Assembly: GCA_963739395.1 (NCBI GenBank)
Contig: CAVUAE010000001.1
Span: 1,094,056-1,158,055, forward strand
From: an uncultured Chloroflexia bacterium
GTDB taxonomy: Bacteria; Chloroflexota; Dehalococcoidia; Dehalococcoidales; RBG-16-60-22
DNA length: 64,000 bases
Reading direction: 5' to 3'
Below, piece after piece: positions 5,930-9,553 of this stretch. Numbering within the stretch: position 1 is the stretch's first letter; each line of letters opens with the position of its first letter. The notes under the pieces were generated by a model. It was not told the DNA's origin. It saw nothing but the letters and a program-made list of their open reading frames with translations, and did not search any database. Made by a program: the position numbers and the translations under genes.

Positions 5930-5957
5930 AATTACTTAATAGTTATTTAACTCTACC

Positions 5958-5973
5958 TACCACTGCACGAACA
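5958..5973. repeat. Left copy of 16-nt direct repeat TACCACTGCACGAACA (orphan dnaN 3'-end remnant)
   Basis: Identical 16-mer at 8421-8436. On the reverse strand it reads ATC CCA TTG TTC GTG CAG TGG TAG (IPLFVQW*), against dnaN's MPMFVQW*. Weaker similarity extends about 8-10 nt further. Confidence 0.8.
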
Positions 5974-6057
5974 ATGGGATGTCTGCCCTTTCATGCGTAC
6001 GTTTGTTCAGGCTAATTTGAAAAAATGTAGAATATTATTAGTCCGTTAATTGATAAC

Positions 6058-8229
6058 TCAACTAGCAAATTGGCTAATATCCCTGTAAAGTTGTTTTAAA
6101 TGATGGTCGGATAAATCTATCAGAGGTTCATACATGAAGGAATTGAGGTGGATAGCTTCCGGTGTCATCATTATGACCCTAGACAATAGTTTTCTAGATT
6201 CTTTGTCTGACGGAAATTTCTTTACAAAGTTGTCGAATAGCACTCTCGTTTGATTTCCACTAATATCTACTGTAACCGCGGGGTCATTTATTTTTTTTAT
6301 GATTGCTTTTTCAGCTTTGAGCCTTATTGCGATTGACAAAACGATTTTATTCTCAAGGTTAATAGTTTCGACATTATTGAGACAACACTCATCCGCCTGC
6401 TGAAAAATAAGAGAAATTACTGTGGTATTATCTGAGGTGATTGAAGGCGCAGGCGTAAATATAGTTCCATAGATAGATGCTAAATCGTTTAATGTAATCG
6501 AGTCTGTATCTGATTTGTAATGGAGTAATGACGTTAACTTTAAATACTCATGGTTAGATCGCCCTTTAGTATATTCAATAATGTTACGCGCCATTGGTAT
6601 AGTAGCTATTAGACAATTTTTATTGCCAGGCAGTTGATCTTTCCAACGTGTAAATGGAGTTCTTAAGCAATCAGCTTGTACCAATTTCACTTCTGATTCA
6701 GACTTGATTGACATCAGGCAATTCTCCCAATATACAGGAAGTCGGCTTTGTACTGTTCTAAAAAAATCAAAGTTATGAGTTAACAATAGAATTAGAAATT
6801 TTTTGGTTTCCTCTATTTCTTTCAAGTATTCAATGATCGCAAATTTGTTTTTGTAGTCAAAAGAATCTGCGATATCATCTAATACTAGAATAGTTTGATA
6901 ATCCTCTGTCTCACGTGCTCTTATCTCGTAAATTATATCTAATATATACAAAGCTCTTTTCTCGCCTGTACTTAATACACTTAACAATTCCACTTTATTC
7001 ATCTCACAGCGGTCAGTGCCATCTATATAATTAAAAGTTATTTTAGGTGTAATTTCCTTAAGAATCACTTCTTCTTGATTAGCTACTTCAATTTCGAAGG
7101 GTACTGTAAAACGTTCTTTAAAAATATTGATAACCTCTCGCCAACGAGTTTCTTGACTTCTTGCCTTATTAACAATTGAATCTATTTGTTTTTTACCTTC
7201 CTTAAAAACCTCAAGAAAATTTTTATAAAGTTCCTTCTCAGAAATTAGATAAGAAATCCATAGTTTCTTTTTGAAAGTATCAACACTAGCCAATTCAGGT
7301 AAAATTTTCATATTGTCTAATAGGTATTGATGAAACTTACGAAGTTCAGCATTACCCATAATCTTGAAATCAATTGAATTAAATTTATCCTTAAGTTCGG
7401 GATTATTTAATATTCGGTTTTCCTCTTCGGAAATAACTGCATCAAAATCAGATTGCGATGTAATTTCTGTTTTTTTAGAAGATGAATCTGATAGTAAAAT
7501 AGCATGTTTAGCGGAAAAGTATTTATTAGCTTTTAGGTTTTTTGATACAGTAGATGCGTTGTAGTGATTGAAGCCACCCTTTCTGAAATAATTTGAACTG
7601 TCGATAATTTCATTGTATTTATCAATATAGTCACACAACAAGGAATGCATGCCTGGTGATTTTAAAAAGGGTTCAGTCTTATCATTTATTACTTCGGAAT
7701 AAAGAATATCAGCAAAATCTGACGATGATGAATTAACATTATCTTGTAGTTTTGATAATAATAATGAACTGTCATTTGATTTATCATCGAAAGCTGATAG
7801 CATTAGTTGTTCAGCGTTCTTTTTTGTATTAGAAACTTTACCAATAGCTGATAATAGAGTAAGTCTAGAACTTTCAATAGATTTTGCTGTTGATTCGTAT
7901 TGTTTCCTTAATTCTTCGTCTACAAGCAAAGTAGATATACGTTCAGATTCGTATTTTTCGTCATATGAGTCAACGACAAATATATGAAGAGGGTTTAAAG
8001 AGTTACCTGTTTCGTCTTTAATATTACATAGTGCTGTTCTTTGAGTATAAATAGCGTCTCTAGGTTCTCTTGATTGGCTAAGGTCATTAAATACTTTTGC
8101 AAGGGATGTTTTCATTGCACCATTGGGAGCATAGAGTAAGAATGAGTTCGCATTAGTAGTAGCAAAGTCAAATTCATGTTTAAGTGCTTTTATTCCATAA
8201 CAATTTTTCAAATCAACGGAAATTTTCAT
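6058..8229 (-). CDS. AAA_13-like ABC-type ATPase with long coiled-coil insert and C-terminal effector-like domain (PrrC/RloC-like architecture)
   Basis: Degenerate Walker A LLYAPNGAMKTSLAKVF, ABC signature LSTGEKRALYIL, Walker B ILVLDDIADSFD, H-loop LLLTHNFDFF. About 300 aa of helical, low-complexity sequence lies between Walker A and the signature motif. The C-terminal 200 aa contain RNIIE...H...H. Confidence 0.65.
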   Translation of the reverse strand: MKISVDLKNCYGIKALKHEFDFATTNANSFLLYAPNGAMKTSLAKVFNDLSQSREPRDAIYTQRTALCNIKDETGNSLNPLHIFVVDSYDEKYESERISTLLVDEELRKQYESTAKSIESSRLTLLSAIGKVSNTKKNAEQLMLSAFDDKSNDSSLLLSKLQDNVNSSSSDFADILYSEVINDKTEPFLKSPGMHSLLCDYIDKYNEIIDSSNYFRKGGFNHYNASTVSKNLKANKYFSAKHAILLSDSSSKKTEITSQSDFDAVISEEENRILNNPELKDKFNSIDFKIMGNAELRKFHQYLLDNMKILPELASVDTFKKKLWISYLISEKELYKNFLEVFKEGKKQIDSIVNKARSQETRWREVINIFKERFTVPFEIEVANQEEVILKEITPKITFNYIDGTDRCEMNKVELLSVLSTGEKRALYILDIIYEIRARETEDYQTILVLDDIADSFDYKNKFAIIEYLKEIEETKKFLILLLTHNFDFFRTVQSRLPVYWENCLMSIKSESEVKLVQADCLRTPFTRWKDQLPGNKNCLIATIPMARNIIEYTKGRSNHEYLKLTSLLHYKSDTDSITLNDLASIYGTIFTPAPSITSDNTTVISLIFQQADECCLNNVETINLENKIVLSIAIRLKAEKAIIKKINDPAVTVDISGNQTRVLFDNFVKKFPSDKESRKLLSRVIMMTPEAIHLNSFMYEPLIDLSDHHLKQLYRDISQFAS

Positions 8230-8363: not shown

Positions 8364-8391
8364 TAAAAAAAGGGGAGCATTTCTGCTCCCC
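8364..8391 (-). terminator. Rho-independent terminator downstream of dnaN
   Basis: 8-bp stem GGGGAGCA/TGCTCCCC (8372-8379 / 8384-8391) with loop TTTC. On the reverse strand it is followed by a 7-nt T-run (A-run 8365-8371 on plus). Confidence 0.7.
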
Positions 8392-8419
8392 CCTCGTTTT
8401 AATCAGGCTATTTCTTTAA

Positions 8420-9553
8420 TTACCACTGCACGAACATCGGCATGACAACGTGCGTGTAATTCTCTGACCCCACCGGACTGATAAGCCCCGGACTGGAAGG
8501 ATTAGTGATTGCCAGGGATACCTGCGATTCATGGAGGACGCTTAAAACATCGGTGAGGTACTTGCCGTTGAAAGCTATTTTGGCTTCGGCGCCCTCTACT
8601 GTGGCGTCGATTTCTCCAACGTCGTCGCCGATTTCTTCCGAGCGTGCCGAGACAGCCAGTTTGCCGGGATTCTTATCGTTGCTAGGTGTCACTACCAGGC
8701 GGACGATACCGCTGCCATCGCGCGCGAATATCGAGGCGGTCTTGGTGGCACGCAGGAATTCCGCCACGCTAACTATAACCCGTGTATTATAACTCTTGGG
8801 GATAAGCTGGGAGTAGTTAGGGAAGGTTCCCTGAACAAGCTGCGAGACTAATTCCGTACTCTTTAAACGGAACAAAACCTGACTCTTGTTGGGATTTAGC
8901 GTGAGGATAACGGCTTCTTCCTGGTCGCCGATAAGCCGATTTAATTCAGCTAAAGTGCGGGCGGGGATTATAACCTCGGTCTTCTCTTTGATTTTATCTT
9001 TAACCGGCATTTTAAAGACCGCCAGCCTGAAGCCATCAGCCGCAGCGAGGGTTAAGGCGCTACCTTCGAACTGGGTGCAGACGCCGGTCAGAACAGGACG
9101 TGATTCTTCGGTAGCGGCGGCGAAGACAACCTGGTTAATCGCCTGACGTAGAGCTTCAACTTCAACCTTGGTGGTGATGCCGTCATCAACGCTGGGGATG
9201 GGAGGAAATTCTTTAGCATCGACGCCGCTGATACGCGCTTCAAAACGGGCGCACTTAAGTCCTAATGTTTTCGTCTGCGGGGAGAGATTGACCGATATCG
9301 TTTCACCGGGTAATGAGCTAACGAATTCCGTAAGCAGTCGGGCTGGCACGGTAATGGAGCCCTCTTCTTCTATTTTGGCGCCAATCCAGCAGCTGATAGC
9401 CATTTCGAGATTAGTAGCGACGAGCTTCAAACGGCCTTCATCAGTGGCTAAAAGAACGTTATTAGTAATGGGCAAGGTCGTCCTGGTAGCTACCGCTCTC
9501 CCGACGATGCTCAATCCACGGTTAAGGTTTTCCTGAAGGCAGGTTAGTTTCAT
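8420..9553 (-). CDS. dnaN: DNA polymerase III beta sliding clamp
   Basis: 377 aa. MKLTCLQENLNRGLSIVGRAV... start, three-domain clamp length, C-terminal NYTHVVMPMFVQW. Confidence 0.93.
   Translation of the reverse strand: MKLTCLQENLNRGLSIVGRAVATRTTLPITNNVLLATDEGRLKLVATNLEMAISCWIGAKIEEEGSITVPARLLTEFVSSLPGETISVNLSPQTKTLGLKCARFEARISGVDAKEFPPIPSVDDGITTKVEVEALRQAINQVVFAAATEESRPVLTGVCTQFEGSALTLAAADGFRLAVFKMPVKDKIKEKTEVIIPARTLAELNRLIGDQEEAVILTLNPNKSQVLFRLKSTELVSQLVQGTFPNYSQLIPKSYNTRVIVSVAEFLRATKTASIFARDGSGIVRLVVTPSNDKNPGKLAVSARSEEIGDDVGEIDATVEGAEAKIAFNGKYLTDVLSVLHESQVSLAITNPSSPGLISPVGSENYTHVVMPMFVQW
8421..8436. repeat. Right copy of 16-nt direct repeat (functional dnaN 3' terminus)
   Basis: TACCACTGCACGAACA is identical to 5958-5973 and encodes the last codons of dnaN on the reverse strand. 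Confidence 0.8.

Follow-up and report, generated by a model that had tools for sequence, protein, structure and literature searches.

We found that the gene at positions 6058-8229 of the window (the whole 64,000-nucleotide stretch analyzed here, from contig CAVUAE010000001.1 of the uncultured Chloroflexia assembly GCA_963739395.1) codes for a protein, P0001, that is, judging from a profile match along nearly its entire length, an ordinary and intact member of PDC-S46, a family already listed in PADLOC as a phage-defence candidate. The protein joins an ATPase head of the ATP-binding cassette (ABC) type to a C-terminal all-helical domain. The reading towards which we lean, if only slightly, is that it is a single-gene immune protein directed against phages or mobile elements, its type being "ABC-ATPase switch plus fused effector". 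Its most likely function would then be a single-chain defence of the abortive-infection type, gated by nucleoside triphosphates (NTPs) and acting through a fused toxic effector that is perhaps a ribonuclease (RNase). This copy alone adds little, the family being already in PADLOC. The family as a whole is of more interest, as all the members examined depart from the Gly-Lys rule that is near-universal in P-loops, and as it carries a conserved effector-like domain that matches no assigned fold. If these proteins protect against phages, they would be among the commonest uncharacterised single-gene immune proteins and a natural test case for the rebuilding of PrrC-type switches.

Family assignment and ATPase head

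The interval 6058-8229 is filled by a single open reading frame (ORF) on the minus strand, of 723 amino acids plus the stop; a plus-strand reading was rejected for its many stop codons. P0001 matches the PADLOC model of PDC-S46 (PDLC05023) with an expectation value (E) of 6.1e-262 and 869 bits, residues 2-720 falling on model positions 3-717 of 719, and it is matched end to end by PHROG 38705 (E 2e-192), a group annotated as of unknown function. Conservation was counted in 51 sampled homologues, 43-79% identical to P0001, and in their alignment the protein deviates from the 90% consensus at four positions only, all of them conservative. In its length, in being a single-gene system and in its link to defence or mobile contexts it is like the rest of PDC-S46, differing by its setting only, as the sole cargo of a 2.4-kilobase (kb) islet at the 3' end of dnaN. 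The PDC set gathers genes embedded in known defence systems ("guilt-by-embedding"), a total of 145 candidates that are called untested by the authors (Payne et al., 10.1101/2024.01.29.577857).

Pfam gave only a sub-threshold match of P0001 to SMC_N and NCBIfam only a weak one to RecF, and searches of the PDB sequences with the protein, the family profile and the profile of the C-terminal domain returned nothing better than E 0.1. AAA_13 (PF13166) reached 30.8 bits, against a gathering cut-off of 36, over model positions 392-580. Yet 19 of the 51 homologues do match this family (E 0.01 or better; 36-57 bits in the eight examined), so that P0001 appears as a borderline outlier of AAA_13. An initial annotation of this gene, made from the sequence, had described its layout as typical of AAA_13, which is right for the lineage of the ATPase, P0001 itself staying below the gathering score of the family. 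The PADLOC model of PrrC (PDLC02360) did not match P0001 at E values up to 1; on our controls, it gave 1.8e-146 for a true PrrC and 2.2e-10 for an RloC-like protein. These controls were a PrrC from Herpetosiphon, an RloC-like AAA_13 protein and 19 diverse PrrCs from Pseudomonadota genomes. The first of them is a textbook PrrC gene located directly downstream of a type I hsdS in Herpetosiphon llansteffanensis, also a member of the Chloroflexota (locus L011, 86-2196), and served as positive control.

The split ABC layout stands as the initial annotation had given it, with all four motifs present as quoted; the mostly helical insert between the head halves has about 280 amino acids, where that annotation had put about 300. 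Along the minus strand, a variant Walker A, YAPNGAMKTS (residues 33-42, 8104-8133), is followed by the helical insert (residues ~98-375, 7105-7938), as delimited by the AlphaFold secondary structure and conservation, and by the C-terminal lobe of the head (residues 376-518, 6676-7104), for which hhalign and Foldseek were used along with conservation. This lobe contains the signature LSTGEKRAL (residues 419-427, 6949-6975), the Walker B and D-loop ILVLDDIADSFD (residues 447-458, 6856-6891) and the H-loop THNFDFF (residues 484-490, 6760-6780). Residues Y33, N36, M39 and K40 of the P-loop are invariant in the 51 homologues, and so are G422 and E423 of the signature, D451, D452, S456 and D458 of the Walker B and D-loop, and H485 of the H-loop. 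The AlphaFold model of the whole protein has a mean pLDDT (predicted local distance difference test) of 89.

By these motifs and by profile comparison, the head belongs to the PrrC/RloC (AAA_13) lineage, with a Rad50/SMC-like ABC fold. The build of P0001 thus resembles that of PrrC and RloC, which are suicide enzymes that cut tRNA (PrrC being an anticodon nuclease), but it is a member of neither of these families. The best profile-profile match of the ATPase is to RloC-like proteins (PADLOC PDC-S06, for example P0243), with 94.7% probability and E 6e-8 over residues 317-497 in hhalign, and a diverse set of PrrCs was matched with 84% probability (E 8e-6). P0001 and this lineage have in common a Y-A-x-N-G P-loop (YA-x-NG-x-x-KT when compared with PrrC), a DD Walker B followed by an S-x-D D-loop, and LTHNFxFFR, of which THN-x-x-F is shared with PrrC and a near-identical LTHNFxFFRxV with the RloC-like proteins. 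Foldseek of the whole model retrieved Rad50 and SMC heads at E 1e-5, as well as the heads of condensin, cohesin, PtuA (Septu and retron systems) and LmuB (Lamassu). With PtuA and LmuB (9n6b, 8eea, 9ux7), P0001 shares the Rad50-like head and, on our reading, the logic of an ATPase sensor that controls an effector. However, these two work with separate effector proteins, whereas the presumed effector of P0001 is fused, and their likeness at the sequence level is confined to the ABC motifs.

The residue before the P-loop lysine is Gly in PrrC and Met in P0001. The initial annotation had called this Walker A degenerate, for having lost both the Gly before the Lys and the leading Gly. The substitution of Met for Gly is real, and the Ala at the leading position is also the state found in PrrC (YAFNGVGKT). 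"Degenerate" is nevertheless the wrong word, given that M39 and K40 are present in 51 of 51 homologues and are therefore a family trait. Since the catalytic residues are just as invariant as the P-loop Met, the site is under selection, with a P-loop that is variant and not decayed.

PrrC is about 370-400 amino acids long and P0001 723, a difference that is due to the insert. In the AlphaFold model of the latter, two long helices (residues 105-133 and 332-358) carry a helical cap that contains the motif YFRKGxFNHxNA. This motif (residues 214-225, window 7555-7590, minus strand) is almost invariant family-wide and adjoins a small beta-hairpin (residues 244-256); it could be the ligand- or nucleic-acid-binding site of a sensor part. 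RloC-like proteins share with P0001 the ABC head, a long helical insert and a C-terminal helical domain, but they have a CxxC zinc hook, which is invariant in the RloC-like set (C275 and C278). No CxxC was found in the insert (residues 90-400) in any of the 51 homologues, which extends to the family what had been noticed at the outset for this protein.

Distribution and genomic context of the family

What makes the family notable is its breadth, together with an unusually good conservation, at 40-45% identity between phyla, and a constant length. Relatives numbering more than 4,000 came out of a word-based search, the best 120 listed being mostly of about 720 amino acids, and a scan with one genome per species found at least 584 carrier species in more than 20 phyla (40-50% identity), including archaea, candidate phyla radiation (CPR) bacteria, cyanobacteria, actinobacteria and firmicutes. 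Homologues were found on 29 plasmids and in one phage record. With a profile of the C-terminal domain we recovered 1262 cluster representatives; among the best 150 of these 1262, the domain is always C-terminal and no other architecture carries it, all of them being members of the PDC-S46 family or fragments.

We examined the neighbourhoods of 80 loci and found no fixed partner gene, the largest recurring cluster of neighbours being present in six of them. The commonest neighbours are DUF2130 (five loci), type III and type II methyltransferases, Mrr, Vsr, HpaII- and DpnII-type endonucleases, IetA-like ATPases, resolvases and integrases; phospholipase D (PLD)-type and toxin-antitoxin genes were seen as well. 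In one context, the gene lies between a type III restriction-modification (RM) system and a pair formed by an AAA and an S8-peptidase gene; in another, an integrative element carries it next to a type II RM pair; and on plasmids it adjoins toxin-antitoxin genes. Such varied RM, defence and mobile neighbours, with no recurring partner, form the pattern of a stand-alone defence-island gene. The proposal of a candidate single-gene defence system, already made in the initial annotation, thus agrees with the PADLOC catalogue and with the absence of a fixed partner.

The same data bear on a non-immune role, in which P0001 would be a DNA-maintenance or addiction protein similar to SMC/Rad50 and would serve its mobile carriers through partition, repair or stabilisation. 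The best structure matches of the whole protein are indeed the heads of Rad50, SMC, condensin and cohesin, the weak sequence matches are to SMC_N and RecF, plasmids and integrative elements often carry the family, and the gene adjoins dnaN here. However, P0001 has neither a long coiled coil nor a hinge, and neither a kleisin nor a nuclease as partner, and no partner gene is conserved; profile comparison puts it closest to PrrC and RloC, which are defence ATPases, and not to SMC or RecF; and the neighbours of the homologues are RM and other defence genes, not partition genes. The adjacency to dnaN is accounted for by the insertion scar described below, which counts against this role too. We regard it as improbable.

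A DUF2130 gene was found directly beside the homologue in five of the 80 loci (L028, L039, L051, L089 and L094), mostly on the same strand and separated by a short gap. An exact protein look-up showed the same adjacency in L006 (6697-7950) and L106 (9233-10510), one of which shares its contig with L028. DUF2130 is followed in L106 by a gene for a PLD-type nuclease. The DUF2130 gene may be an optional partner or a separate defence gene.

The C-terminal domain and the proposed mechanism

Residues 519-723 (6061-6675, minus strand) form a family-specific domain, delimited by a separate AlphaFold model and by profile searches, that is the candidate effector. Modelled on its own, it is all-helical, with a pLDDT of 87 and a predicted template modelling (pTM) score of 0.86. 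As in PrrC, this helical domain comes directly after the head and starts with a PF motif followed by R-N-[IL]-[IL]-E, with an invariant His at the end of the next helix. In the stretch ARNIIEYTKGRSNHEY...LLHYKSD, present at residues 547-575, the initial annotation had seen a likeness to the Arg-x3-Glu...His triad of PrrC. The conserved block is IPMARNIIEY...LTSLLHYK (residues 545-572, 6514-6597, minus strand), in which R548-N549-x2-E552 precedes T566-x3-H570-x-K572. The three residues on which the nuclease reading had been made to depend are kept by the family, R548 and H570 being invariant, as is N549, and E552 being conserved in at least 90% of the homologues.

When the hhalign alignment to PrrC is anchored in the ATPase, both proteins show the same order of Walker B, H-loop, two terminal strands, PF motif and RN motif, and the family sequence IPMxRNLIEY is paired with FNxLRNILEK of PrrC at high posterior, the counterpart of the P0001 motif being LRNILEK. 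In this alignment R548, N549 and E552 are the counterparts of R320, N321 and E324 of EcoPrrC, residues that its toxicity requires (PMC3025547). It is in the second half of the PrrC nuclease that the likeness to the triad fails. R349-x2-N352-x3-H356 of PrrC is an Rx6H case of the Rx4-6H motif that defines HEPN domains (PMC3710099), and it has no counterpart in P0001, nor do H295 and H315; the site matching R349 varies, and the PF motif is not followed by a His. In place of the HEPN half, the PDC-S46 family has T566-x3-H570-x-K572, and P0001 continues for about 150 extra C-terminal residues. Judged from the alignments, what the domain has in common with the nuclease of PrrC is at most its first two helices and Arg-Asn-x2-Glu.

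These 150 residues past the PrrC-like start have invariant positions of their own: K628, R636, Q660, H694, N696, S697, E701 and D705. The most conserved stretch of the whole domain is TPEAIHLNSFMYEP (residues 689-702, 6124-6165, minus strand; family form TPExIHLNSFMYEP), where H694, N696, S697, F698, M699, E701 and P702 are invariant. It is also the one with the lowest model confidence, with a pLDDT of 48-60 in both AlphaFold models, and may need a partner, a substrate or a second protomer to become ordered.

In two of the 51 homologues (P0053 and P0057), there is an insertion with four Cys between the PF and RN motifs of the domain (e.g., CRELACDRSSCTHRVC). This insertion may form a zinc knuckle that adjoins the putative active site.

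Under the immune reading, two heads would dimerise head-to-tail on nucleotide binding, as in PrrC, and the insert or the head would sense an infection cue that releases the C-terminal domain as a toxic effector. The activity of the latter would most probably be that of a metal-independent RNase, with R548, N549 and E552 acting together with H570 and/or H694, and its action would stop translation and abort the infection. A bolder version, which we put forward only tentatively and hold to be doubtful, is that PDC-S46 is a third pan-prokaryotic lineage of ribotoxins gated by ABC NTPases, beside PrrC and RloC. In it, the R-N-x2-E half of the PrrC type would have been kept, the HEPN Rx6H half replaced by a new helical module (H570, K628, R636, H694 and N696), and the obligatory Gly-to-Met head would work as a nucleotide-gated switch instead of a conventional hydrolase.

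Several results weigh against an immune protein with a fused nuclease. With a Met in front of the P-loop Lys, the binding of nucleotide is expected to be disturbed, and the head may hence not be a normal hydrolase. The gene is alone here, with no RM or other defence gene among the ten neighbouring ORFs scanned, as the initial annotation had already remarked for RM genes. In the literature we found no experimental test of PDC-S46, and the PDC surveys checked make no mention of it. Pfam and PADLOC scans of the C-terminal domain, each with 23 homologues, found no family besides PDC-S46 and no nuclease family, the HEPN families of Pfam included, and no structure in PDB or BFVD was matched by Foldseek at E 0.001 or better. 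Nor is there an Rx4-6H motif as in HEPN domains, no conserved Arg being found four to six residues before either H570 or H694. Finally, the isolated domain aligned with the diverse PrrC profile at noise level (hhalign score 14.2, E 0.25), whereas the positive control, the RloC-like profile against the same PrrCs, scored 26.4 (E 0.0017). The C-terminal domains of RloC-like proteins and PrrC align mutually by hhalign, but that of P0001 was not aligned to the RloC-like one.

Earlier scores of the isolated domain, 18.5 against a low-diversity PrrC profile and 20.1 against a merged PrrC/RloC profile (control, 18.9), were rejected as evidence, because they are reached by 3-4% of column shuffles, are beaten by a reversed profile and collapse when diverse PrrCs are used. 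This too tells against the nuclease. By these controls, a PrrC signal is present only in alignments that have the ATPase as anchor.

A different reading of the same domain is that P0001 is a defence protein whose C-terminal part is not an RNase. The domain could have a new effector chemistry, such as targeting DNA or nucleotides, or be a sensor or protein-binding domain, with the ATPase or recruited host factors doing the damage. The missing family, structure and HEPN motif and the noise-level likeness to PrrC all fit this possibility, as do the 150 residues with invariant positions of their own (K628, R636, Q660, H694, N696, E701 and D705) and the most conserved loop being modelled at low confidence, as expected if it is ordered only on a partner. 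However, so dense a set of invariant Arg, His, Lys, Glu and Asn is seen more typically in a catalytic site, RN-x2-E is collinear with essential residues of PrrC in the anchored alignment, and the sole compact matches of the fold in the PDB were three HEPN proteins. Like the C-terminal domain of P0001, these RNases (HepT 6m6u and 5yep, and 2q00) are all-helical, but their E values of about 1-3 are not significant (2q00_A, probability 0.82 and target-normalised TM-score 0.54; 6m6u_G, 0.54 and 0.50; 5yep_C, 0.33 and 0.45). We consider a C-terminal domain without RNase activity rather unlikely, if well worth keeping in mind. The profile and structure searches have thus placed the domain in no family besides PDC-S46, nuclease or other, and the compact structure matches to HEPN are not significant. 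Its wording of an effector "of a variant type" was fair, while the PrrC/RloC-like nuclease module is for now a plausible lead and not a finding.

The low-GC islet at the end of dnaN

The gene is the sole cargo of the 2.4-kb islet, which has a guanine-plus-cytosine (GC) content of about 31%, with 30-34% across the gene versus 45-52% in the flanks. The low-GC stretch is bracketed exactly by a direct repeat (D2) of the end of dnaN, comprising its last seven codons and the stop. The left copy, at the far edge of the islet (5951-5981), reads IPLFVQW-stop on the minus strand, and the right copy (8414-8444), which is the functional 3' end of dnaN, reads MPMFVQW-stop and is closer to the dnaN ends of the same genus than the left one. 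The two are identical at 25 of 31 positions (81%), with an exact core of 16 nucleotides, TACCACTGCACGAACA. This duplication is an att-like scar, with no integrase left. No homologue was found in 60 related genomes, including 17 species of the same genus. Composition and distribution thus mark the gene as horizontally acquired, and since it still differs widely from the host in GC content, its arrival seems to be recent. A clean empty site could not be shown in the same-genus genomes, where dnaN is 79-85% identical at the DNA level and is followed by rfb-type genes instead of NIF3.

Upstream of the gene, a consensus scan found a promoter-like TTGACG-17-CATAAT (8294-8266, minus strand) and an AGGAG ribosome-binding site (8239-8235), five nucleotides ahead of the start codon (ATG, 8229). 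A GC-rich hairpin, GGGGAGCA-TTTC-TGCTCCCC (8372-8391, annotated on the minus strand), lies between dnaN and this gene, with T-runs on both sides; it is likely the terminator of dnaN, and likely bidirectional, separating dnaN from the islet gene. With this hairpin and its own promoter-like and ribosome-binding sites, the gene is a cassette complete in itself, inserted where dnaN has its 3' end.

It might also be that this copy is an inert relic, the stranded cargo of a decayed mobile element, neither expressed nor of use to this host any more. An integrase is missing from the islet, as is any further mobile or defence gene, and the left dnaN repeat has diverged, both of which would suit a relic. 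On the other hand, the ORF is intact and keeps all the family-invariant residues, its few departures from the consensus being conservative, it has a promoter-like site and a ribosome-binding site of its own, and the GC difference points to a recent arrival. The chance that the copy is dead seems slim to us.

PrrC genes are embedded in type I hsd loci, as is our Herpetosiphon control next to hsdS, but the gene of P0001 adjoins NIF3, esterase, dnaN, moaC and moaA genes. On one side of the islet lie genes for a GH3 glycosidase, an FGGY kinase, the esterase and NIF3, and on the other dnaN, moaC, moaA and an AraC-type regulator.

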